This document shows, in pieces, positions 8,322 through 45,150 of a DNA stretch of 48,167 bases. Position numbers and translations under genes: made by a program. Every line of letters starts with the position of its first letter. The first letter of the stretch is position 1. This DNA comes from a virus (lineage: Duplodnaviria > Heunggongvirae > Uroviricota > Caudoviricetes). Location: IMG/VR virus record IMGVR_UViG_2721755721_000005. The stretch is one strand, 5' to 3'. Under the pieces are notes generated by a model that saw nothing but the letters and a program-made list of their open reading frames with translations, searched no databases and had not been told where the DNA came from.

Positions 8322-9029
8322 TTAGGCAGCAGTCGCTTGCTCACTTCTGCTATCACCAAACATAGTCTGTGCTGCCATGTCAACATCTCCAGATACTGAA
8401 TTCTCGTATCTTCTAATAGCTTCATCTGGCGTTTCGGTAAAGGTTTTTTCAGCAAAAATAATATCTTGTAGTTCGCATATCTTTATTTTCAACTTTCTTA
8501 GGGTGTCACTATCGTTTTTTCCTGTGATCCTCACACAAGCATTAATACGATTAATTATTATTTCTTGGAATATGTTTTTCTTTTCCTCAATTATTCTTCT
8601 AAAAAGAACTATTGTTTTTTCTTTTCCTATAATATCCTCTTCAAGAGGCGCTTTTGCTTTCTCTATATCTTTCTTTGACGCAAACTCATTAAATGCAAAA
8701 GTGGTTATGTAACCTATTATTATAGGAAGGAATGAATAGGAAGTTGGTACTTTTGTTGTTAGGTAGGTTGATATGGCTCCTATGACTATTAATACTGTTC
8801 TTTTATACCAAGGTACAGAGATTATGAATTCGAAAAAACGTGTTATCGCCACATGCATCTTTTGCAAAAGGCAAAGGATTAAAACTACTATAACAACGAT
8901 AATAAGTATCGCAGCAAAACTTGAAGCGACCTCAGTTACTGATGAATTACTATTTTTTTCAGCAGTATAGCTACTTACAGTAGATGGCGTATTGATTTCT
9001 AATTGTTTGTTTTCAATCTCGGTGCCCAC
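8322..9029 (-). CDS. Uncharacterised membrane protein (gene B of a two-gene accessory operon): three predicted TM helices plus a ~110-aa charged C-terminal domain
   Basis: 235-aa ORF with a GTG start 10 nt after the gene A stop. Hydrophobic segments AAILIIVVIVVLILCLL, TVLIVIGAISTYL and FLPIIIGYITTFAF. Strongly AT-rich by eye. Confidence 0.6.
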   Translation of the reverse strand: MGTEIENKQLEINTPSTVSSYTAEKNSNSSVTEVASSFAAILIIVVIVVLILCLLQKMHVAITRFFEFIISVPWYKRTVLIVIGAISTYLTTKVPTSYSFLPIIIGYITTFAFNEFASKKDIEKAKAPLEEDIIGKEKTIVLFRRIIEEKKNIFQEIIINRINACVRITGKNDSDTLRKLKIKICELQDIIFAEKTFTETPDEAIRRYENSVSGDVDMAAQTMFGDSRSEQATAA

Positions 9030-9038
9030 GCTAATCCC

Positions 9039-9509
9039 TTAATCTTTGGCCATTCCTAATTTTTCAAATAATGTCGGTGCTCCAGCTAAAATTGCGGCTA
9101 GCATTCTTAACGAATCACCAGATAAGTTGAGCATCTTTTCATCAACAGCAATCTCTTCTACTGTGAAAACAATCAATGGTGTTTGTTCTTCTTCAATTAT
9201 TGTCGATTTTATTCCTATTGATTTTCTATTAAAATTATTAGCAATGGACAGTAGCGATTGTTTATCTTTGCCTATTTTCATGGCGTTGGTGTTAAAAGAG
9301 TTCATCAGTCTCATTACTATTATTCTAGATGCTACTCTCTTCTCAAGTATTAAATTGACTTCATTGAATTTAAATGCAACCAATTCAAATCCTTCTTCTC
9401 TCTCTAATTCTTTTATATTATTAAACTCACTTATGCTAGATATAATATCTATAAGGCTTTGATTATTTCTCTTTTGTGTTTCGGTTTTTTTCCTTCTTCC
9501 AGAAGACAT
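9039..9509 (-). CDS. Uncharacterised soluble protein (gene A of the two-gene accessory operon)
   Basis: 156-aa ORF with AAGGA SD about 8 nt upstream of the ATG; basic N-terminus (MSSGRRKKTETQKR); no recognisable motif; AT-rich. Confidence 0.6.
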   Translation of the reverse strand: MSSGRRKKTETQKRNNQSLIDIISSISEFNNIKELEREEGFELVAFKFNEVNLILEKRVASRIIVMRLMNSFNTNAMKIGKDKQSLLSIANNFNRKSIGIKSTIIEEEQTPLIVFTVEEIAVDEKMLNLSGDSLRMLAAILAGAPTLFEKLGMAKD

Positions 9510-10537: not shown

Positions 10538-11887
10538 ATGTCGAGTCTGAGAGATATGGAAGAGCTTATTGGTGATATCGTGGATGTTGAGCTTAAAGAA
10601 TACATGCGAGAAGCACTAATTTGCTATATGACTGGTGCTCATCGAGCATGCGTAGTGCTTTCGTTCATTGCCATCTTCGAGGACTTATTCAAAAAGTTAG
10701 ACGGGATGGCCACTACGAATAGAGTTGCTAAAGCGATCTTTACAGAAATATCCAAGAAAAGAGATGAACAAAAAGTTTACGAAAATGATTTGCTTAATAA
10801 ATTGAAATCTGAAAAAATAATTACAGAGATTGATGCTGACTTTCTCACTGTGTTAAGAACTCTCAGAAATAAAGCTGCACATCCTTCAGGCCATAAACCG
10901 ACAGCTGAAGAAGCTCGATATGTGTATTCAGAAACTATAAATAGATTTCTTTCAAAGCCAGTTCTTTCAACAACTCAAGTTGCCGACCAAATCCTATCTA
11001 AGCTTACCAATTCATACTTATTCCCAACATCTAATATTCAGGACCATGCTATCGTAGTAAATGAGGGTGTTAAAAATCTTCATCATGATGGTTACTCATA
11101 CCTCCTGAAAAAACTCATAGAGTCATTAGACAATGCCAATGAACAAATAAAACTTAATGCAAAAAGATATCTTTTAGGCCTATCTTTTAAACCACTAAAT
11201 AACGATGTTCTTGAGCAAATAAAAAAGCATTTCTTAGTTGAGTGCAGTTCGGATGAAAGTAAAAGACAATGTTTAATGGAATGTATTTCAACCAATGGTA
11301 ATTTGCTAAAAGGTATGGAGGATATTGTTTACTTAAGATTAAATAAAATGTTTGAGGATACAATTTCAACTACAAAATCCTCCGATCAGCATACCTATTT
11401 AAGGCACCCTGTACAGATTGCAATTAGTGTTCTTGGGTTGGAAAGAGAAATTATTGATAGATGCTTTAGATCTAGCATTGATGATGTTCTTGAAAAATAT
11501 AAACTTAGCCCAGTGCTGATGAAGAATATAAAAGGGCATGAGTGGGCTAGACAGAAAGTCATCCAATCAATTTTTGGGCAGGCCGGATCTACAACTTTCT
11601 CTGAAGCTAACACTTTTGCTCAGAGTGTAAATTCATACGATGGTGACATCTCCAGTTTGATGGACAACATAAATTGCTTCGAACTCATTGTTCATATCTG
11701 TGCTGCAGGCAATTGGGGTTCATTTGGAGCTGAAGGTATGATGAAAGGAAAATTCAATAATATCCCTAAAATTAAAGAAAAGGCTGTTAAAGCTCTGCAG
11801 GATAATATCTCTAATTGCCAAGAAATAATTGCAAGAATAAATCCAGCTCTATGTGAAGCAAAGGATTTTGAAGAAAGATATCTTTGA
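10538..11887 (+). CDS. HEPN-domain protein (Rx4H motif, DUF4145/Apea-like) with a ~300-aa uncharacterised C-terminal region
   Basis: 449-aa ORF with AAAGGAG SD. Motif LRTLRNKAAHP (nt 10864-10881), i.e. R-x4-H, in a predicted helical N-terminal domain. AT-rich; divergent from the two-gene operon. Confidence 0.7.
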   Translation: MSSLRDMEELIGDIVDVELKEYMREALICYMTGAHRACVVLSFIAIFEDLFKKLDGMATTNRVAKAIFTEISKKRDEQKVYENDLLNKLKSEKIITEIDADFLTVLRTLRNKAAHPSGHKPTAEEARYVYSETINRFLSKPVLSTTQVADQILSKLTNSYLFPTSNIQDHAIVVNEGVKNLHHDGYSYLLKKLIESLDNANEQIKLNAKRYLLGLSFKPLNNDVLEQIKKHFLVECSSDESKRQCLMECISTNGNLLKGMEDIVYLRLNKMFEDTISTTKSSDQHTYLRHPVQIAISVLGLEREIIDRCFRSSIDDVLEKYKLSPVLMKNIKGHEWARQKVIQSIFGQAGSTTFSEANTFAQSVNSYDGDISSLMDNINCFELIVHICAAGNWGSFGAEGMMKGKFNNIPKIKEKAVKALQDNISNCQEIIARINPALCEAKDFEERYL

Positions 11888-17088: not shown

Positions 17089-17631
17089 ATGAACGCAAAA
17101 ATCAAATACGGCCTGTCAGCTGCTGTTCTGGCGCTGATTGGAGCAGGAGCATCTGCTCCTCAGATACTTGACCAGTTTCTGGATGAAAAAGAGGGTAACC
17201 ACACTACGGCATACCGCGATGGTTCCGGCATATGGACCATCTGTCGAGGGGCCACGATGGTGGATGGTAAACCTGTTATTCCTGGCATGAAACTGACGAA
17301 GGAAAAATGCGATCAGGTTAATGCCATTGAACGAGATAAGGCGCTGGCATGGGTGGAGCGCAACATTAAAGTGCCACTGACCGAACCACAGAAAGCGGGT
17401 ATAGCGTCATTTTGTCCCTATAACATTGGCCCCGGTAAGTGTTTCCCGTCGACGTTTTATAAGCGGCTGAATGCCGATGATCGTAAGGGGGCATGCGAGG
17501 CGATTCGCTGGTGGATAAAAGATGGTGGGCGTGATTGCCGCCTGACAAAAGGGCAGAAGAATGGCTGTTATGGGCAGGTCGAGCGGCGCGATCAGGAAAG
17601 CGCACTGGCGTGCTGGGGGCTGGACCAATGA
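17089..17631 (+). CDS. SAR endolysin (GH24 lysozyme with N-terminal signal-anchor-release segment)
   Basis: N-terminus MNAKIKYGLSAAVLALIGAGASAP (Gly/Ala-rich weak TM), then a lysozyme catalytic region with E..D..T pattern; follows the pinholin. Confidence 0.85.
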   Translation: MNAKIKYGLSAAVLALIGAGASAPQILDQFLDEKEGNHTTAYRDGSGIWTICRGATMVDGKPVIPGMKLTKEKCDQVNAIERDKALAWVERNIKVPLTEPQKAGIASFCPYNIGPGKCFPSTFYKRLNADDRKGACEAIRWWIKDGGRDCRLTKGQKNGCYGQVERRDQESALACWGLDQ

Positions 17632-18164
17632 AAATTAATCCGGATCTTATAGGCGTTGTCGTTATTGCTGGCCTTTCGGTCGCTCTCGTCAAGAGTTGCT
17701 CTCACGCCAGTAATCTTCAGAGCGATAACGACGTTCTGCGAAGTGACAACTCTATGCTGGAGCAGGTAATCGCCACCCAGGCATTCAACTTCAATCGATT
17801 CAATCAGGTTGCAGAACATGCCAACAGTCTTAACTCCCTGATCGACACCAGCACCGAAAAAACCGTAATCGAATACCGGGAGATTCTCCGCCGTGAAAAA
17901 ACCTGTGATCTGCCTGTTCCTGCTGATATCGCTGGTGGGTTGCTCGAATACACGTACCGTTTACGTGCCAGCGCCATGCACACCGATACCGGCAGACCTA
18001 ATGAAGCCTATGATCGTACCGCTGCCACCAGCTCAATGACCTACTGCCAAGCTGTCTTGTGGATTAAGCCGCTACTGGCGTTGATAGAAAAAGGAAATAA
18101 TAATTTTTCGAGTATTCGTGAAATTGATGAGTTGCGTTACAGACCATCTGAGCGTGGCCAGTAA
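17628..18164 (+). CDS. i-spanin Rz
   Basis: ATG at 17628 overlaps the endolysin stop; N-terminal TM segment (LIGVVVIAGLSVALV) then a coiled-coil-like periplasmic domain. Confidence 0.75.
   Translation: MKINPDLIGVVVIAGLSVALVKSCSHASNLQSDNDVLRSDNSMLEQVIATQAFNFNRFNQVAEHANSLNSLIDTSTEKTVIEYREILRREKTCDLPVPADIAGGLLEYTYRLRASAMHTDTGRPNEAYDRTAATSSMTYCQAVLWIKPLLALIEKGNNNFSSIREIDELRYRPSERGQ
17893..18039 (+). CDS. o-spanin Rz1 (lipoprotein) embedded in the +1 frame of Rz
   Basis: GTG start; translation (M)KKPVICLFLLISLVGCSNTRTVYVPAPCTPIPADLMKPMIVPLPPAQ has lipobox LVGC and a Pro-rich mature part. Below the ORF-track size threshold. Confidence 0.6.
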   Translation: MKKPVICLFLLISLVGCSNTRTVYVPAPCTPIPADLMKPMIVPLPPAQ

Positions 18165-18332
18165 GGTTACAGGAAATTTAAAATCTGGCGATGAAATTTA
18201 ATATTAGAAATTCATTGCCTAGTGAGATTAATAATGGGCATCCCTTTGTGACGATAAGCTTTAACACATTCACAAAGGGATATTTAATATAGGGTGGTTA
18301 AATCCCACTTGCTGTGGTGTTTAGGGGATAAT

Positions 18333-19025
18333 TCAAATCTTATCTAACTCATTATAGGCTTCGATAATAAAAATTCTGATTTTAATAAGGCATGATTCAA
18401 TGAAAGGAATTACTTCATAGTCATTCCCATGGAATCTTATTTTTTTCTCTTCGGTAATGACTATGTTTAAAGGTACACCATTACCACTTCTTTGTAATCT
18501 CCCATTTTCGAAAGTAAAGTCTTCTAATTTTTTTCCATTGATATGGTTGTTTTTAAAGAGAATTTTTGCTGAGCTCCCTGCTGTGATTAAATTAAAACCA
18601 TCTACGCTCACACTTAGTTCTTTAACAGAACTCTCTTCTCTTAAGGGGATTGGTTGTCTGTGCTTTACTTCATTAGTGAGATTACACATCATTTCCAACC
18701 AAGATTCGCCAGTGTGATAATCCTGTATAGAAGTAAAAATTTTATATAATGGAGAAGATGATGGTGGGTTTATTTTTAGCGTCTTTGAGAAAAATTTATC
18801 AATAAACTCTTTTTTTCTGTAAGGGAAATATATTTTGGGACGCTCATCATTACTGCTTGGAGAAATATATTTATCATAGGTATCATTAGCGAGATACTCT
18901 AAGGAACTTCGTAAGTTTTCCAAAATAGCTTTGACTTTTACAGGCTTGATATGCTGTGTCTGTCTCATTATGTCAAGACTTTCTTCAACCTCTTGCAATA
19001 AGTCCAACGAGCCTTCTCTAGACAT
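18333..19025 (-). CDS. Uncharacterised moron protein at the lambda bor position (between Rz and cos)
   Basis: 230-aa minus-strand ORF with a strong SD (AAAGGAG) and an upstream TATAAT; AT-rich; no TM segment or recognisable motif. Confidence 0.6.
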   Translation of the reverse strand: MSREGSLDLLQEVEESLDIMRQTQHIKPVKVKAILENLRSSLEYLANDTYDKYISPSSNDERPKIYFPYRKKEFIDKFFSKTLKINPPSSSPLYKIFTSIQDYHTGESWLEMMCNLTNEVKHRQPIPLREESSVKELSVSVDGFNLITAGSSAKILFKNNHINGKKLEDFTFENGRLQRSGNGVPLNIVITEEKKIRFHGNDYEVIPFIESCLIKIRIFIIEAYNELDKI

Positions 19026-19596
19026 ACAGGTAATTCTCCTTTTTGAATTTTCAACATGTTATAACTAATTATATATTTATCATATAACTGTATGAATAAA
19101 TTGTGAGATTAGTAATGCAAGTTTCTATCCATAGTGTTCCCTAAGTACCCGCTTCCATCATGTTGTTACGGACGGTATGGCTAAAACAAAGCACCTGAAG
19201 TTAAACGTTCTGAACTTTATGCTCGTTGAGCATATGAATTATCTGTAACCCGATGCGCTGGTTGTGGTTCAAATTGATGGTCGTAATCAGCAGCGGTAGT
19301 GCCTGATGGCATGCAACTTCTTACTTATAAAACTTCGTATGGAATTGTTGCCATAACGAGCCCAGCTTAGCAGTTTTTAATGGGTCCTCCCGGCAGTGTG
19401 TCCTGCCACGGGGCGGGAGCGTCGCGGAAAAAGGCTAGTTTTTGAAATTTCATCCGTCATCACCACTACTGTAATAGATTGATATTACAGTATTTTTATT
19501 TTTGTGGTGTCGATTTTGATTGTTTTTTGTTCATCACTAACACCGTTTGCCTAAAGTCGTTCGCAAGATGCATGTTTAAAACATTCTGGAGCGGGT

Positions 19597-20091
19597 ATGG
19601 ATCGAGAGTTAAAAAATCTGACGCTGAATATCAGTCAACTGGCGGCACTGTCAGGTGTACATCGCCAGACTGCTGCGGCAAGGCTGCAAAATCTACCCGT
19701 TGCAGGGGGGCATGAAAGCAACCTCAAGCTTTATCGGGTGGTTGATATTGTGTCGGCATTTCTGGCATTACCACCGCCGGTTGCAGAAGGCGAAATGGAC
19801 GCGCATGAGCGCAAAGCCTGGTATCAGTCTGAACGTGAGCGTCTTAAGTTCGAACAGGAAACGGCGCAACTCATTCCGGCCAGTGATGTCAGACGGGAGT
19901 TTGCCATCTGGGCAAAAGCGGTCGTGCAGGTGCTGGAGACATTACCGGATATTCTGGAACGTGACTGCGGTCTGCAGCCTGCCGCTGTGAGCCGTGTTCA
20001 GTCCATTATTGATGATCTGCGCGATCAGATAGCCCTGCGGGTGACTGTAGCAGGTGCGGATGATGAGGAGGAATTACAGCAGGAGGAGTAA
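19597..20091 (+). CDS. Terminase small subunit (Nu1-like)
   Basis: 164-aa ORF with an N-terminal HTH-like segment (LTLNISQLAALSGVHRQTAAARL) immediately upstream of and abutting the large terminase gene. Confidence 0.8.
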   Translation: MDRELKNLTLNISQLAALSGVHRQTAAARLQNLPVAGGHESNLKLYRVVDIVSAFLALPPPVAEGEMDAHERKAWYQSERERLKFEQETAQLIPASDVRREFAIWAKAVVQVLETLPDILERDCGLQPAAVSRVQSIIDDLRDQIALRVTVAGADDEEELQQEE

Positions 20092-22193
20092 TGCTGAATC
20101 AGGAAACCGCAAAGGCAGCACGAACCGATTCAGGTTATATCCTTCGCGCACCGAGACGAATGCGGGTTGCTGATGCCGTTGCTCAGTATATGCGGGTGCC
20201 CATGGGGGCAGGGAACTCAGTCCCGTGGGATCCGCTGGTGGCACCGTATGTTATTGAGCCGATGAACTGCCTGGCCTCGCGTGAATACGACGCAGTGATA
20301 TTTGTTGGCCCGGCACGAACCGGCAAGACTATCGGCCTGATTGACGGCTGGGTGATTTACAACGTGATTTGCGATCCTGCTGATATGCTGATCATTCAGA
20401 TGACGGAGGAAAAAGCCCGCGAACACTCCAAAAAACGACTCGCCAGAACGTTTCGCGTCAGCCCGGAAGTGGTCAGTCGCCTGAGTCCGAACAAAAATGA
20501 CAACAACGTTTATGACAGAACATTCCTTGCTGGCAACTACCTGAAAATCGGCTGGCCGTCAGTCAATATCATGTCTTCATCAGATTATAAATGCGTGGCG
20601 CTGACGGATTATGACCGTTTTCCGGAAGATATTGATGGTGAGGGGGATGCCTTCTCTCTTGCCTCAAAACGTACCACCACATTTATGTCCAGTGGTATGA
20701 CGCTTGTGGAGAGTTCCCCCGGCAGGGATGTGAAGGATGTGAAATGGCGACGGACTTCACCGCATGAGGCTCCACCAACCACGGGGATCCTGTCGCTCTA
20801 TAACCGTGGCGATCGCCGTCGCTGGTACTGGCCCTGTCCACACTGTGGTGAGTATTTTCAGCCCTGCGGCGATGTGGTTGCTGGTTTCCGTGATATTGCC
20901 GATCCTGTGCTGGCAAGTGAGGCGGCTTATATTCAGTGTCCTTCCTGTTCAGGACGGATTTTGCCTGAACAAAAACGCGAGCTGAACGGACGTGGGGTCT
21001 GGTTACGGGATGGTGAATCCATCAATGCAGATGGCAGTCGTTATGGTGATCCCCGGCGTTCACGTATTGCGTCATTCTGGATGGAGGGTCCGGCAGCTGC
21101 TTATCAGACACTCTCGCAACTCGTTTACAAACTGCTTACTGCAGAACAGGAATACGAGACAACCGGAAGTGAAGAGACACTCAAGACGGTTATCAATACC
21201 GACTGGGGATTACCTTATCTTCCCCGCGCCAGCATGGAGCAACGAAAAAGTGAATTGCTTGAGCAGCGGGCAGAGCCAGTTCCTTCCCGCAGTGTGCCGG
21301 ATGGCGTTAATTTCCTTGTGGCGACAGTGGATGTGCAGGCGGGACGTCATCGCCGTTTTGTGGTTCAGGTAACGGGCTATGGCAGCCGTGGCGAACGCTG
21401 GATTATTGATCGTTACAACATCACGCAGTCATTGCGCGGTGACAGCGACGGGGAGAGCCAGCGAATTGATCCGGCCAGCTATCCGGAAGACTGGGATGTC
21501 CTGCTGACGGATGTTTTTCATAAAAGCTGGCCGCTGGCCTCCGACCCTTCTCAACAAATGCGACTGATGGCAATGGCGGTGGACTCCGGCGGTGAAGACG
21601 GGGTCACTGATAATGCCTATAAATTCTGGCGTCGTTGCCGTCGTGATGGCCTTGGTAAACGTATTTACCTGTTTAAGGGCGACAGCATCCGGCGCGCAAA
21701 ACTGATCACCCGTACATTCCCTGATAACACCGGACGAACGGGCCGACGGGCGCAGGCCGCAGGTGATGTGCCGCTCTGGCTTCTTCAGACGGATGCCCTG
21801 AAAGACCGGGTGAATAACGCGTTATGGCGTGACTCGCCAGGTCCCGGCTATGTGCATTTCCCTGACTGGCTGGGGAGCTGGTTTTACGACGAACTGACGT
21901 ATGAAGAGCGGAGCAGTGACGGGAAATGGAGTAAGCCGGGTCGCGGTGCCAACGAAGCTTTTGACCTGATGGTGTATGCCGAGGCTCTGGTCATTCTGCA
22001 TGGATACGAAAAGATCCGCTGGCCGGATGCACCGGAGTGGGCGAGCCGGGAAACCTGGCTGGAGTGTGTCCCGGACAGTACCGAACCGTCACCCTCACCG
22101 GAACCGGTACCCACGCCTGTTAAAAAACAAAAACGGAAGAAAACAGTAACTGACGATGTTAACCCCTGGCTGACTTCCGGAGGATGGTTATGA
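20091..22193 (+). CDS. Terminase large subunit (GpA-like)
   Basis: 700 aa; Walker-A-like VGPARTGKT; lambda gpA-like size and position. Confidence 0.9.
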   Translation: MLNQETAKAARTDSGYILRAPRRMRVADAVAQYMRVPMGAGNSVPWDPLVAPYVIEPMNCLASREYDAVIFVGPARTGKTIGLIDGWVIYNVICDPADMLIIQMTEEKAREHSKKRLARTFRVSPEVVSRLSPNKNDNNVYDRTFLAGNYLKIGWPSVNIMSSSDYKCVALTDYDRFPEDIDGEGDAFSLASKRTTTFMSSGMTLVESSPGRDVKDVKWRRTSPHEAPPTTGILSLYNRGDRRRWYWPCPHCGEYFQPCGDVVAGFRDIADPVLASEAAYIQCPSCSGRILPEQKRELNGRGVWLRDGESINADGSRYGDPRRSRIASFWMEGPAAAYQTLSQLVYKLLTAEQEYETTGSEETLKTVINTDWGLPYLPRASMEQRKSELLEQRAEPVPSRSVPDGVNFLVATVDVQAGRHRRFVVQVTGYGSRGERWIIDRYNITQSLRGDSDGESQRIDPASYPEDWDVLLTDVFHKSWPLASDPSQQMRLMAMAVDSGGEDGVTDNAYKFWRRCRRDGLGKRIYLFKGDSIRRAKLITRTFPDNTGRTGRRAQAAGDVPLWLLQTDALKDRVNNALWRDSPGPGYVHFPDWLGSWFYDELTYEERSSDGKWSKPGRGANEAFDLMVYAEALVILHGYEKIRWPDAPEWASRETWLECVPDSTEPSPSPEPVPTPVKKQKRKKTVTDDVNPWLTSGGWL

Positions 22194-28548: not shown

Positions 28549-28974
28549 ATGGAATTACAGGACTGGCGAAAAGAACCTCGTAAAAACTATTCGAATGAAT
28601 TCAAACTTCGTATGGTGGAACTGGCATCACAACCTGGAGCTTGTGTTGCACAGATTGCACGTGAAAATGGCGTCAATGATAATGTTATTTTCAAATGGCT
28701 CAGGCTCTGGCAGAACGAAGGGCGTGTTTCGCGGCGTCTTCCGGTAACGACCTCTTCTGACACTGGCGTTGAATTATTACCTGTAGAAATAACGCCGGAT
28801 GAGCAGAAAGAACCTGTGGCGGCCATTGCGCCGTCTTTATCCACTTCCACTCAGACCAGAGTCAGTGCCAGTTCCTGCAAGGTGGAATTCCGTCACGGTA
28901 ACATGACGCTGGAAAATCCATCGCCAGAGCTGCTCACAGTGTTGATCCGTGAACTGACCGGGAGGGGAAGATGA
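28549..28974 (+). CDS. IS66-family accessory protein TnpA (orf1)
   Basis: 141 aa; first ORF of the IS; HTH-like N-terminus. Confidence 0.8.
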   Translation: MELQDWRKEPRKNYSNEFKLRMVELASQPGACVAQIARENGVNDNVIFKWLRLWQNEGRVSRRLPVTTSSDTGVELLPVEITPDEQKEPVAAIAPSLSTSTQTRVSASSCKVEFRHGNMTLENPSPELLTVLIRELTGRGR

Positions 28975-29321
28975 TCTCACTCCCATCAGGTACCCGTATC
29001 TGGCTCGTTGCCGGCGTTACCGATATGCGTAAATCCTTCAACGGACTGGGAGAACAGGTACAACATGTGCTGAATGATAATCCCTTCTCCGGTCACCTGT
29101 TTATCTTCCGTGGCCGACGGGGTGACACCGTCAAAATTCTTTGGGCTGATGCTGATGGTCTGTGCCTGTTCACCAAACGCCTGGAGGAAGGCCAGTTTAT
29201 CTGGCCTGCGGTACGTGACGGCAAGGTATCCATTACCCGCTCGCAACTGGCAATGCTCCTCGATAAGCTGGACTGGCGTCAGCCAAAAACATCCAGCCGT
29301 AACTCACTGACAATGTTGTAA
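28971..29321 (+). CDS. IS66-family accessory protein TnpB (orf2)
   Basis: 116 aa; ATGA overlap with the tnpA stop; MISLPSGTRIWLVAGVTDMRKSFNGL pattern. Confidence 0.8.
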   Translation: MISLPSGTRIWLVAGVTDMRKSFNGLGEQVQHVLNDNPFSGHLFIFRGRRGDTVKILWADADGLCLFTKRLEEGQFIWPAVRDGKVSITRSQLAMLLDKLDWRQPKTSSRNSLTML

Positions 29322-29351
29322 AAAACTCCTGACCGCATTATAAAAACGGTC

Positions 29352-30965
29352 ATGAGTCAGAAATACCTCATTCGCATCGCAGAGCTGGAAAGGTTGCTCT
29401 CTGAGCAGGCTGAAGCCCTCCGTCAGAAAGACCAGCAACTGAGTCTGGTTGAAGAGACGGAAGCCTTCCTGCGCTCTGCACTGACACGTGCCGAAGAAAA
29501 GATCGAAGAAGATGAACGGGAAATAGAACATCTGCGGGCTCAGATAGAAAAACTGCGCCGGATGCTGTTCGGTACCCGTTCTGAAAAACTGCGTCGTGAA
29601 GTTGAACTGGCTGAGGCTCTGCTGAAACAACGTGAACAGGACAGCGATCGTTACAGTGGGCGGGAAGACGATCCTCAGGTTCCCCGCCAGTTGCGACAGT
29701 CGCGCCATCGTCGTCCGTTACCGGCACACCTTCCCCGTGAAATACACCGCCTGGAGCCAGAAGAAAGCTGTTGCCCGGAGTGTGGCGGTGAGCTGGATTA
29801 TCTGGGGGAAGTCAGCGCTGAACAGCTGGAACTGGTGAGCAGTGCCCTGAAAGTGATCCGCACAGAACGGGTAAAAAAAGCCTGTACAAAATGTGACTGT
29901 ATTGTTGAAGCACCGGCGCCGTCCCGCCCGATAGAGCGTGGTATCGCGGGCCCCGGATTACTTGCCCGCGTGTTAACGGGAAAATACTGCGAACATCTGC
30001 CACTGTATCGTCAGAGTGAAATCTTTGCCCGCCAGGGTGTCGAACTGAGCCGGGCCTTACTCTCCAACTGGGTTGACGCGTGCTGCCAGTTAATGACACC
30101 GGTGAATGATGCCCTGTACCGTTATGTAATGAACACCCGCAAGGTTCACACTGATGACACACCGGTAAAGGTACTGGCACCGGGTCAGAAAAAGGCGAAA
30201 ACAGGGCGTATCTGGACGTATGTCCGGGATGATCGCAATGTGGGTTCGTCATCTCCTCCAGCGGTCTGGTTCGCGTACTCGCCGAACCGGCAGGGGAAAC
30301 ACCCGGAGCAACACCTCCGCCCCTTCCGGGGTATCCTGCAGGCGGATGCGTTCACAGGTTACGACAGGTTGTTCAGTGCAGAACGTGAAGGTGGTGCACT
30401 GACAGAAGTTGCGTGCTGGGCCCATGCCCGGCGAAAAATCCACGATGTATACATCAGCAGCAAAAGTGCGACGGCAGAAGAAGCCCTGAAGCGAATCAGT
30501 GAACTGTACGCCATCGAGGATGAAATACGGGGATTACCGGAGTTAGAGCGTCTTGCCGTCAGGCAGCAGCGAAGCAAAGTGTTACTGACGTCGCTGCATG
30601 AATGGATGGTGGAGAAGAATGGTACGCTGTCGAAAAAATCCAGACTGGGCGAAGCGTTCAGCTATGTACTGAATCAGTGGGATGCCCTCTGTTATTACAG
30701 TGATGACGGTCTGGCGGAGGCGGATAATAATGCTGCGGAAAGAGCGCTTCGTGCAGTCTGTCTCGGAAAGAAAAACTTTATGTTCTTTGGCAGCGATCAC
30801 GGCGGCGAGCGTGGAGCACTGTTGTACGGGCTGATCGGCACCTGCCGTCTGAACGGTATCGATCCGGAAGCGTATCTGCGCCATATCCTGAGCGTACTGC
30901 CGGAATGGCCTTCCAACCGAGTTGATGAACTCCTGCCATGGAACGTAGTACTCACCAATAAATAA
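29352..30965 (+). CDS. IS66-family transposase TnpC (orf3)
   Basis: 537 aa; N-terminal leucine-zipper/coiled coil, CPECGG zinc motif, central DDE-type region. Confidence 0.85.
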   Translation: MSQKYLIRIAELERLLSEQAEALRQKDQQLSLVEETEAFLRSALTRAEEKIEEDEREIEHLRAQIEKLRRMLFGTRSEKLRREVELAEALLKQREQDSDRYSGREDDPQVPRQLRQSRHRRPLPAHLPREIHRLEPEESCCPECGGELDYLGEVSAEQLELVSSALKVIRTERVKKACTKCDCIVEAPAPSRPIERGIAGPGLLARVLTGKYCEHLPLYRQSEIFARQGVELSRALLSNWVDACCQLMTPVNDALYRYVMNTRKVHTDDTPVKVLAPGQKKAKTGRIWTYVRDDRNVGSSSPPAVWFAYSPNRQGKHPEQHLRPFRGILQADAFTGYDRLFSAEREGGALTEVACWAHARRKIHDVYISSKSATAEEALKRISELYAIEDEIRGLPELERLAVRQQRSKVLLTSLHEWMVEKNGTLSKKSRLGEAFSYVLNQWDALCYYSDDGLAEADNNAAERALRAVCLGKKNFMFFGSDHGGERGALLYGLIGTCRLNGIDPEAYLRHILSVLPEWPSNRVDELLPWNVVLTNK

Positions 30966-44200: not shown

Positions 44201-44569
44201 AGCGGGACCGCAAATAGTGCCGGTGCGCACCAACACAAGAGTTCCGGTGCATTTGGTGGCACGAACACGAGCATTTTCCCTAATGGTTATACCGCGATTT
44301 CAAATCTAAGCGCGGGGATTATGAGCACAACAAGCGGTAGTGGCCAGACTCGTAATGCAGGGAAGACATCATCAGATGGTGCTCATACCCACTCGCTGTC
44401 CGGCACTGCTGCAAGCGCAGGCGCACATGCACATACTGTCGGTATTGGTGCTCATACGCACTCCGTTGCGATTGGCTCACATGGACACACCATCACCGTT
44501 AACGCTGCTGGTAACGCGGAAAACACCGTCAAAAACATCGCATTTAACTATATTGTGAGGCTTGCATAA
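41291..44569 (+). CDS. stf: Side tail fibre protein Stf
   Basis: [26 protein letters not shown]..., a long Ala/Ser/Thr-rich repeat region, and C-terminal GAHTHS-type repeats ending [11 protein letters not shown]; lambda Stf-like. Confidence 0.85.
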
Positions 44570-45150
44570 TGGCATTCAGAATGAGTGAACAAGCACGGAC
44601 CATAAAAATTTATAATCTGCTGGCCGGAACTAATGAATTTATTGGTGAAGGTGACGCATATATTCCGCCTCATACAGGTCTGCCAGCAAACAGTACCGAT
44701 ATTGCACCACCAGATATTCCGGCAGGCTTCGTGGCTGTTTTCAACAGTGATGAGGCATCGTGGCATCTCGTTGAAGACCATCGGGGTAAAACGGTTTATG
44801 ACGTGGCTTCCGGCGACGCGTTATTTATTTCTGAACTCGGTCCGTTACCGGAAAATGTTACCTGGTTGTCGCCGGGAGGGGAATATCAGAAGTGGAACGG
44901 CACAGCCTGGGTGAAGGATACGGAAGCAGAAAAACTGTTCCGGATCCGGGAGGCAGAAGAAACAAAAAACAGCCTGATGCAGGTAGCCAGTGAGCATATT
45001 GCGCCACTTCAGGATGCTGTAGATCTGGAAATCGCAACGGAGGAAGAAATCTCGTTGCTGGAAGCCTGGAAGAAGTATCGGGTGTTGCTGAACCGTGTTA
45101 ATACAACAACTGCACCGGATATTGAATGGCCAGTAGCACCTATAGGGTAA
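44569..45150 (+). CDS. tfa: Tail fibre assembly protein Tfa
   Basis: [43 protein letters not shown]... lambda Tfa-like; ATG overlaps the stf stop. Confidence 0.9.

Follow-up and report, generated by a model that had tools for sequence, protein, structure and literature searches.

A promoter-bearing antisense moron in the Rz-cos slot of a lambdoid Qin prophage encodes a putative HEPN-like protein and is a candidate single-gene defence cassette

Results

An AT-rich antisense gene between the lysis genes and cos

The DNA analysed here, a stretch of 48,167 nucleotides (IMG/VR record IMGVR_UViG_2721755721_000005, taken at its full length and called the window below), belongs to an E. coli prophage of the lambdoid group that occupies the Qin (ydfJ) site. 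At this locus it is identical to strain 1943 (NZ_CP023359), which carries the protein WP_000085745.1. The genes run in the order Q, holin, YdfR, lysozyme, Rz-like/Rz1, an oppositely oriented 230-aa gene, a non-coding stretch of about 570 bp, a DUF1441 small terminase and the large terminase. The last gene of the lysis cassette, an Rz-like i-spanin ORF (17628..18164, plus strand) in which an Rz1-like lipoprotein ORF is embedded (17893-18039), converges on the 230-aa gene, and the first packaging gene is the DUF1441 small terminase (19597..20091, plus strand), followed by the large terminase (20091-22193). Linear phage records of the mEp460 type start at window position 19406 or 19572, which places cos in 19382-19596, just downstream of the promoter of the 230-aa gene. 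The flanks named in the original prediction, Rz/Rz1 on one side and cos with the small terminase on the other, are therefore those found. Lambda has its bor gene, a lone antisense moron, in the interval from Rz to cos, and the 230-aa gene occupies this same position.

The gene is intact (18333..19025, minus strand), with its ATG at 19025 and its TGA at 18333-18335, and encodes a protein of 26.7 kDa and pI 6.5 that is identical to WP_000085745.1, annotated as 'hypothetical protein'; a literature search for this accession returned nothing. The GC content is 0.32-0.34 over 18200-19200, compared with 0.45-0.55 upstream in the lysis genes and 0.54-0.57 downstream in the terminase genes, so that a gene of 32-34% GC stands between flanks of about 52%. 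The gene is thus the AT-rich, minus-strand ORF that had been predicted. Because AT-rich DNA is rich in stop codons, a 693-nt ORF in such a region is improbable by chance.

The gene had also been credited with a strong Shine-Dalgarno sequence of its own and an upstream TATAAT, and we found both. The sequence AAGGAGA lies at 19035-19041 (minus strand), 10 nt ahead of the ATG. The TATAAT (19073-19068) belongs to a promoter-like arrangement on the minus strand in which it follows TTCATA (19096-19091) after 17 nt, with 10/12 positions matching. This arrangement is the top-scoring of 8 promoter-like sites in the region; since shuffled DNA yields 5.2 +/- 2.2 such sites, the promoter match alone is weak evidence. 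The Shine-Dalgarno sequence and both promoter elements (-10 at 19068-19073, -35 at 19091-19096) are carried on an upstream segment (19026..19152, minus strand) that contains the conserved blocks TAGtTATAAcATGTTG and TTGCATTACTAaTCTCACA and is 78% identical, as far as 19152, to the corresponding DNA of an Enterobacter cassette.

On the other side of the gene, a hairpin with a 13-bp stem (ATCCCTTTGTGA...TCACAAAGGGAT; 18241..18283) is placed between the convergent stop codons of Rz and the 230-aa gene. It has a folding energy of -26.1 kcal/mol and a z score of -3.3, is without a clear U-tract, and may act as a terminator; a scan of the gene region for canonical terminators gave none.

The encoded protein has no transmembrane segment, in line with the original prediction: the highest 19-residue Kyte-Doolittle mean is 1.66, and it falls on the amphipathic C-terminal helix of the bundle. 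Neither a signal peptide nor a lipobox was found, and the N-terminus is acidic (MSREGSLDLLQEVEE). The gene at 18333..19025 is real and self-contained.

The gene is exchangeable cargo on a mobile cassette

Similarity between the window and sibling Qin/mEp460-like prophages ends at 17631 and restarts at 19382. The variable segment in between (17632..19381) holds the Rz/Rz1 variant, the 230-aa gene and unique spacers, and the siblings fill the same interval with other Rz alleles and unrelated cargo, either cspI-ymcF-ynfN-gnsB or a set of small ORFs that includes an HNH remnant. The whole island is present in 98 of 5426 complete E. coli genomes, and the carrier strains come from varied sources (dog, pig, chicken, human and wastewater). 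For comparison, a 1.3-kb query finds a partial match in 2066 E. coli genomes and a 5-kb query spanning the lysis genes to the terminase matches 4650 of the 5426. Sibling prophages and the viable phages PhiR40_1 and mEp460 are without the gene, and a tblastn search of 50,697 sequenced phage records, a set that includes phi80, found the protein encoded in none of them. A rare island that siblings and phages do without is dispensable, exchangeable cargo.

Next, we examined where the relatives of the gene are found. In all six further enterobacterial relatives whose contexts were examined, the last lysis gene stands on one side of the gene and the first packaging gene on the other, and the gene itself is encoded on the strand opposite to theirs (contexts from E. 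coli, P0032; Enterobacter, P0005, P0010 and P0217; Raoultella, P0057; Cronobacter, P0020; and Citrobacter, P0050). The orientation against the late operon, which had been predicted from the window, therefore holds in these relatives as well. The packaging modules beside them are of three types (DUF1441/TerL, Nu1/gpA and HNH/Terminase_4/TerL) and the endolysins are GH19 or GH24; one E. coli relative resides in a true lambda-type prophage with Nu1/gpA. What the window has in common with the Enterobacter and Cronobacter loci at the DNA level is limited to the coding sequence plus an upstream stretch of at most about 127 bp (18330-19152). Because only the coding sequence and the promoter-bearing upstream DNA are shared, the mobile unit is a promoter plus a gene, which is a moron by definition. 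The original prediction of a moron at the bor position is borne out by this cassette structure, together with the breaks in sibling similarity and the other cargo found in the same interval. A 485-aa neighbour, with no match in Pfam or PADLOC, is specific to the Enterobacter lineage.

Further relatives occupy other places in mobile elements. The Pseudomonas veronii relative is located in the early-left region of a prophage, that of Cupriavidus in an integrase/resolvase island, and that of Caballeronia at a prophage end, adjoining lysis genes. In Rouxiella silvae, the gene lies between the terminase gpP/portal gpQ genes and the replication gene gpA of a P2-like prophage; the cos-proximal gpQ-gpA (old/tin) locus of P2 has been described as a hotspot of anti-phage systems (Rousset et al., PMC9122126). 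Distant loci in Methylotuvimicrobium, Shewanella, a Bacillota MAG and Rheinheimera have housekeeping-like neighbours, read from their translations as RNR, ValRS and HtpG and by Pfam as SpoU methylase and amidohydrolase. A PADLOC analysis of ten neighbours gave no match except a generic helicase. Given the housekeeping neighbours and the lack of PADLOC defence matches, the family associates with mobile elements and not with defence islands of the classical kind. We found no conserved partner gene at any of the loci examined, and the flanks contain no Rfam family and no conserved small ORF.

A broad family of stand-alone proteins under purifying selection

The original prediction recognised no motif in the protein, and the curated libraries give the same answer: we found no match in Pfam or NCBIfam, and with the 5027 models of PADLOC-DB v2 no family was matched at E values up to 10. 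The sole family match is PHROG 13652, of unknown function. A word-indexed search at 45% identity or more returned 60 clusters, all from Enterobacteriaceae and all annotated as 'hypothetical', while a full HMM search with the family profile returned 491 representative clusters (50% identity) at E <= 0.001. Nearly all of the 491 are stand-alone proteins of 220-250 aa that match end to end. Members reach Pseudomonas, Cupriavidus, Caballeronia, Neisseria, Acinetobacter, Shewanella and Methylotuvimicrobium; the family extends to the Bacillota and Actinomycetota and is also present in Bacillota and Solirubrobacterales MAGs and on Bacillus megaplasmids. The extra domains of the few longer members were uninformative, with one sub-threshold match to DUF6941.

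The gene is under purifying selection. Compared with an Enterobacter ortholog of 81% identity, dN/dS is 0.09 at a dS of 1.27, and over five pairwise comparisons dN/dS ranges from 0.04 to 0.11. In the region of codons 128-198, which is predicted to form a beta domain (see below), omega is 0.07-0.18, indicating lower constraint only and no positive selection.

A predicted helical bundle with an inserted beta domain

We modelled the protein with AlphaFold2 using the family alignment (mean pLDDT 89.4, pTM 0.73). In the model, which is of good confidence, two helices (residues 3-23 and 28-53) are followed by short helices within 72-105 and then by a helix spanning 109-121; after these come a beta domain (128-198) and a last helix (205-229), and residues 54-108 make up the insertion that separates helices 2 and 3. 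A second model, made from independent distant relatives headed by the P. veronii protein, which is 25% identical to the window protein, shows the same order of elements (pLDDT 91.1, pTM 0.83).

Conservation concentrates on two of these elements. Helix 2 (28-53) and helix 3 (109-123) are the most conserved segments, their pairwise identities being 0.79-0.83 among close relatives and 0.48-0.49 across the wide family. The beta region (128-198) falls from 0.45 among close to 0.18 among distant members and is the least conserved after the 54-65 loop. In a set of 56 sequences with a mean mutual identity of about 29%, L42, F67, P68 and H122 are invariant, and R39, Y44, D48, Q101, L110, N118 and K121 are kept in at least 90%. 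The conserved face of helix 2 (codons 36-48; 18882..18920, minus strand) comprises E36 (48/56), R39 (54/56), S40, L42, an acidic residue at 43 (D or E in 56/56), Y44 and D48 (52/56). At the C-terminal end of helix 3 stands the sequence T-N-E-V-K-H (codons 117-122; 18660..18677, minus strand), in which H122 is present in 56/56, K121 in 55/56 and N118 in 53/56; position 117 is T in 42/56 and otherwise N, V or A, never R. The predicted beta-strand domain (codons 128-198; 18432..18644, minus strand) is inserted directly after this motif.

This anatomy can be compared with the published description of HEPN domains. There, a catalytic motif R-[NDH]-x3-H, in which N, D or H commonly follows the Arg, lies at the end of helix 3, a second conserved acidic/basic element lies in helix 2, and inserts between helices 2 and 3 are typical (PMC3710099). 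Furthermore, Csx1 has a beta hairpin right after the HEPN motif, PaREP1/8 proteins keep the His and have lost the Arg, with other basic residues presumably substituting for it, and AbiV/AF0298 use an alternative His (PMC3710099). As modelled, the window protein appears to match this description with Thr in place of the motif Arg. The sequence T117-N118-E-V-K121-H122 has the spacing of R-N-x3-H with only its His and Asn parts present, the Arg of the canonical R-x4-6-H motif is absent from every one of the 56 family members examined, and the spacing in helix 2 is E-x2-R compared with the E-x3-[KR] typical of HEPN domains.

We then asked whether sequence or structure comparison connects the family with HEPN proteins. 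At the sequence level, no such support was obtained: Pfam scans of 56 distant members gave scattered sub-threshold noise and no HEPN family, and searches of PDB sequences gave chance-level matches only (Cyt2Ba, E 0.27; apolipoprotein A-IV, E 0.14). A structure-based search, which had been proposed with the original prediction, was carried out with Foldseek and returned nothing from the PDB at E <= 0.001 and one unnamed viral protein from BFVD (A0A514TZW7, E 2e-4). We also aligned the family profile by hhalign with an alignment of HEPN (DUF4145) sequences whose starting point was the DUF4145 protein encoded in the window itself, which has LRTLRNKAAH. T117, N118 and H122 fall on the R, N and H of the motif, at an E value of 0.13-0.27 that is not significant in an underpowered comparison, and the sole local alignment superposes WLxxLCxLTNxxKH on FLTVLRTLRNKAAH, likewise without significance. 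The control, phi80 gp52, which has RNDLAH, failed as well; the hhalign test is thus of low power and cannot decide.

On the predicted fold and the position of the conserved residues, we consider an HEPN fold probable for the window protein. That it is an active RNase is plausible, with considerably less assurance, since catalysis cannot be assumed where the motif Arg is missing. The original prediction left the nature of the cargo open between lysogenic conversion and defence; the HEPN-like predicted fold speaks more for defence or toxin cargo than for a surface factor of the Bor kind.

Discussion

A candidate HEPN-type defence protein

The slot between Rz and cos also holds cargo unrelated to defence, such as lambda bor and cspI/gnsB in Qin-like prophages, so that position alone does not imply defence. 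With the predicted fold taken into account, we tentatively favour the hypothesis that the gene encodes a prophage-encoded HEPN-type abortive-infection effector, an RNase switched on by a superinfecting phage. The gene is a good candidate, and a testable one, for a further variant among solo HEPN defence proteins.

Under this hypothesis, the moron would be a single-gene expression cassette in the cos-proximal cargo slot of temperate phages, and its product a cytoplasmic, stand-alone protein with a core HEPN-type four-helix bundle. The lysogen would make the protein from the gene's own promoter and hold it inactive. On superinfection, a phage-derived cue might be sensed through the variable beta domain beside the active site and would activate a metal-independent RNase centre, formed by His122, Lys121 and Asn118 where helix 3 ends and by Arg39, Asp/Glu43, Tyr44 and Asp48 of helix 2. 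This centre would probably span a dimer interface. The resulting RNA cleavage would halt phage growth and thereby give the lysogen its defence phenotype. When the prophage itself goes through lytic growth, the Q-dependent late transcript would read through the gene in antisense and could damp its expression.

The closest parallels to such a protein are two solo HEPN systems of prophages. HepS (STM14_3211) of the Salmonella prophage Gifsy-1 is a solo HEPN abortive-infection protein that is constitutively expressed and inactive at rest; it is triggered by siphovirus tail-tip proteins and cuts tRNA anticodon loops (PMC13043305). Like HepS, the window protein is a single protein of fewer than 250 aa with a (here predicted) HEPN fold, partner-less, carried as accessory cargo of a lambdoid prophage and found in gene neighbourhoods without a conserved partner. 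Synthesis in the lysogen in a form inactive by default, shown for HepS, is what we propose here. Unlike HepS, the window protein does not have the canonical RX4-6H motif and carries instead the Arg-less T-N-x-x-K-H, followed by a predicted beta domain of about 70 residues, and its gene lies at the Rz-cos junction. Tha-1 and Tha-2 of S. aureus prophages are HEPN defence proteins activated by minor tail proteins; Tha has 301 aa; the fold of its N-terminal part is unknown, its C-terminal part is a HEPN domain bearing the canonical motif RNSIMH, and its cognate inhibitor, Ith, is phage-encoded (PMC11087260). In the window protein, by contrast, the additional element appears to lie within the HEPN domain, and we saw no gene for an inhibitor.

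The unusual features of the putative active site have separate precedents. As in PaREP1/8, helix 3 ends in a His and the motif Arg is missing, and the window protein would have further conserved basic residues, K121 and R39, to draw on. As in Csx1, a beta element directly follows the motif, although it is a hairpin in Csx1 and would be a whole domain here. PaREP1/8, AbiV/AF0298 and Csx1 are presumably unrelated families, archaeal or CRISPR-associated.

What appears to be new is the combination of an HEPN-like predicted fold bearing an Arg-less T-N-x-x-K-H and an inserted beta domain, a broad family of solo proteins and a recurring cos-proximal cassette. A more far-reaching version is possible, if rather doubtful: the family could be an undescribed branch of HEPN proteins with a rebuilt, Arg-less centre made of the His-Lys pair closing helix 3 together with Arg, Tyr and Asp of helix 2. 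A variable beta sensor placed right behind the catalytic His could gate catalysis when it binds a ligand or a phage protein, all in one chain of 230 residues, and the resulting single-gene defence, missing from present defence catalogues, would have spread through the cos-proximal slots of two or more unrelated lineages of temperate phages, lambdoid and P2-like. If the HEPN defence reading is right, a very compact single-protein immune effector would join the small set of solo prophage HEPN proteins (HepS and Tha); its active site would be unusual in having no arginine, and its sensor domain would be part of the same protein. The same cargo would then be traded between the 'bor slot' of lambda and the old/tin slot of P2. 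Furthermore, many 'hypothetical proteins' could be annotated and defence-system finders improved, as the 491 clusters are invisible to Pfam, NCBIfam and PADLOC. If it is wrong, the gene is an ordinary moron of unknown function.

Alternative functions

The absence of the motif Arg can also be read as the sign of a protein that binds and does not cleave RNA. HEPN domains without the motif are known to serve as binding modules (PMC3710099), and an HEPN-like binder could block a component of the phage or host, protecting the lysogen or excluding competitors. The gene taiEcA (orf63) of phi80 offers a precedent, as it lies in the same Rz-cos slot and orientation and is of similar size. It points against the late operon that depends on Q, its expression is constitutive in the lysogen and drops once Q is made, and its product is reported to block tail assembly; a counter-defence gene, atiEcA, is adjacent (PMC11364771). 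In the phi80 record, TaiEcA corresponds to gp52, a 204-aa protein on the minus strand. The moron of the window thus resembles tai in lying between the lysis genes and cos/packaging and antisense within the Q-dependent late operon, whereas no counter-defence gene is seen beside it and the action of Tai is not RNA cleavage. Membership of the window protein in the Tai group was considered and rejected: the tblastn search of the phage records, phi80 included, found nothing, and hhalign against phi80 gp52 gave a probability of 0.1%. Besides this lack of sequence similarity to TaiEcA, the catalytic-type residues argue against a Tai-type binder. They stay fixed down to about 25% identity, with H122 invariant and K121, N118, R39, Y44, D48 and Q101 at 90% or more, a pattern seen more in enzymes than in binding surfaces. 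Accordingly, we regard a non-catalytic binder as unlikely, and the abortive-infection RNase remains the reading that we prefer. By analogy, the window protein seems to share the logic of HepS, Tha and Tai and not to be a member of any of the three.

The protein could alternatively act as toxin in an addiction or toxin-antitoxin module that keeps the prophage stable, with an antitoxin, either a small protein or an antisense RNA, that lies unrecognised within the cassette. This is quite improbable, since no partner ORF is conserved at any locus, no Rfam family was matched, and the shared DNA extends no further than the stop codon on one side and 19152 on the other, which is enough for a promoter and a 5' UTR only. 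An antitoxin would also be unnecessary for a protein of this type, HepS and Tha being solo HEPN proteins that need none (PMC13043305, PMC11087260).

A bor-like role, in which the gene would be a lysogenic-conversion factor of use to its host in a given niche (stress, virulence or metabolism) and unconnected with phages, earns still less of our confidence. It would be in keeping with the slot, which is used by lambda bor and by the Qin-type cargo cspI/ynfN/gnsB, and with the animal, human and wastewater origins of the carrier strains. Bor of lambda is a small secreted lipoprotein. The window gene is like bor in being a single antisense moron between Rz and cos; its product, unlike Bor or Lom, would be cytoplasmic, has neither signal peptide, lipobox nor transmembrane segment, and is predicted to be a soluble helical bundle whose fold points to nucleic-acid chemistry. 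Moreover, relatives are carried by prophages and mobile elements of bacteria from soil and water (Pseudomonas veronii, Caballeronia, Cupriavidus, Shewanella, Methylotuvimicrobium and, on megaplasmids, Bacillus), and no niche common to these hosts is evident.

Finally, the strikingly constant placement at the lysis-packaging junction might suggest a function in the phage life cycle itself, such as the timing of lysis or packaging, which is highly improbable for a compositionally foreign gene that is antisense to the late operon, missing from sibling prophages, from PhiR40_1 and mEp460 and from every phage record searched, and confined to an island in 98 E. coli genomes when 4650 match the surrounding lysis-to-terminase region.

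Possible HEPN-type genes in the nin region and in phi80

We found that the nin region of the prophage carries, upstream of hokD/rem, a plus-strand gene (10538-11887) whose 449-aa product has a DUF4145 annotation. Near the N-terminus of this protein, residues 106-115 (LRTLRNKAAH) form a canonical HEPN motif, and approximately 300 further residues have no Pfam match. Furthermore, Pfam PF27235 is present in relatives of the protein. This gene is possibly a second HEPN-type cargo gene of the prophage.

Next, we considered phi80 gp52, a protein of 204 aa encoded on the minus strand (44365-44979 of NC_021190; 4366-4980 of our locus L027). Judged from its position and size, gp52 corresponds to TaiEcA (orf63), the tail assembly inhibition (Tai) defence gene of phi80. 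From the sequence alone, SMRNDLAH within gp52 fits the pattern of a canonical HEPN motif, R-N-x3-H; the text of the Tai paper (PMC11364771) contains no occurrence of the term HEPN, and gp52 has neither a Pfam match nor a PDB sequence match.

Neighbours of the moron and of its relatives

The Rz-like gene beside the moron (17628-18164, plus strand) is part of the variable segment, as homology to the sibling prophages stops at position 17631. Its product has no Pfam match, and the Rz alleles of the sibling prophages are of the DUF2514 type or annotated as "lysis protein". The moron may be exchanged jointly with the spanin pair.

In the Enterobacter prophages (L003, L018 and L041-L043), the family member is always flanked by a divergent gene on the late-operon strand (minus strand, 4455-5912 in L003), which encodes a 485-aa protein with neither a Pfam nor a PADLOC match. 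The identity of the adjoining HEPN-like allele to the window protein varies among these prophages from 49% to 81%. The family loci of E. coli, Citrobacter, Cronobacter and Raoultella lack the gene for the 485-aa protein.

A relative 31% identical to the 230-aa window protein is found as a solo gene on Bacillus megaplasmids of 270-285 kb. On the Bacillus pseudomycoides plasmid NZ_CP007625 (L044, 6884-7630), it is oriented opposite to its neighbours, with a recombinase gene 1.9 kb away.

Other genes and an insertion in the prophage

Two adjoining hypothetical genes on the minus strand follow the replication genes (8322-9029, 235 aa, and 9039-9509, 156 aa). They are oriented opposite to the early-right operon, neither product has a significant Pfam match, and they look like another cargo pair. 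Inside the lysis cassette, the 3' end of the YdfR gene overlaps a 90-aa minus-strand ORF (WP_000369848.1, 16711-16983; no Pfam match) that lies antisense to the late operon. Three sibling prophages (L014, L015 and L016) also have an annotated antisense ORF similar to this one.

Finally, the tail-assembly/tape-measure region is interrupted by an IS66-family element (28549-30965, plus strand) comprising tnpA (HTH_Tnp_1), tnpB (TnpB_IS66) and tnpC (DDE_Tnp_IS66). Strain 1943 has a prophage that matches in other respects but is devoid of this element, and the gpG, gpT and tape-measure genes of that prophage are contiguous. Tail formation is probably defective in the window prophage.
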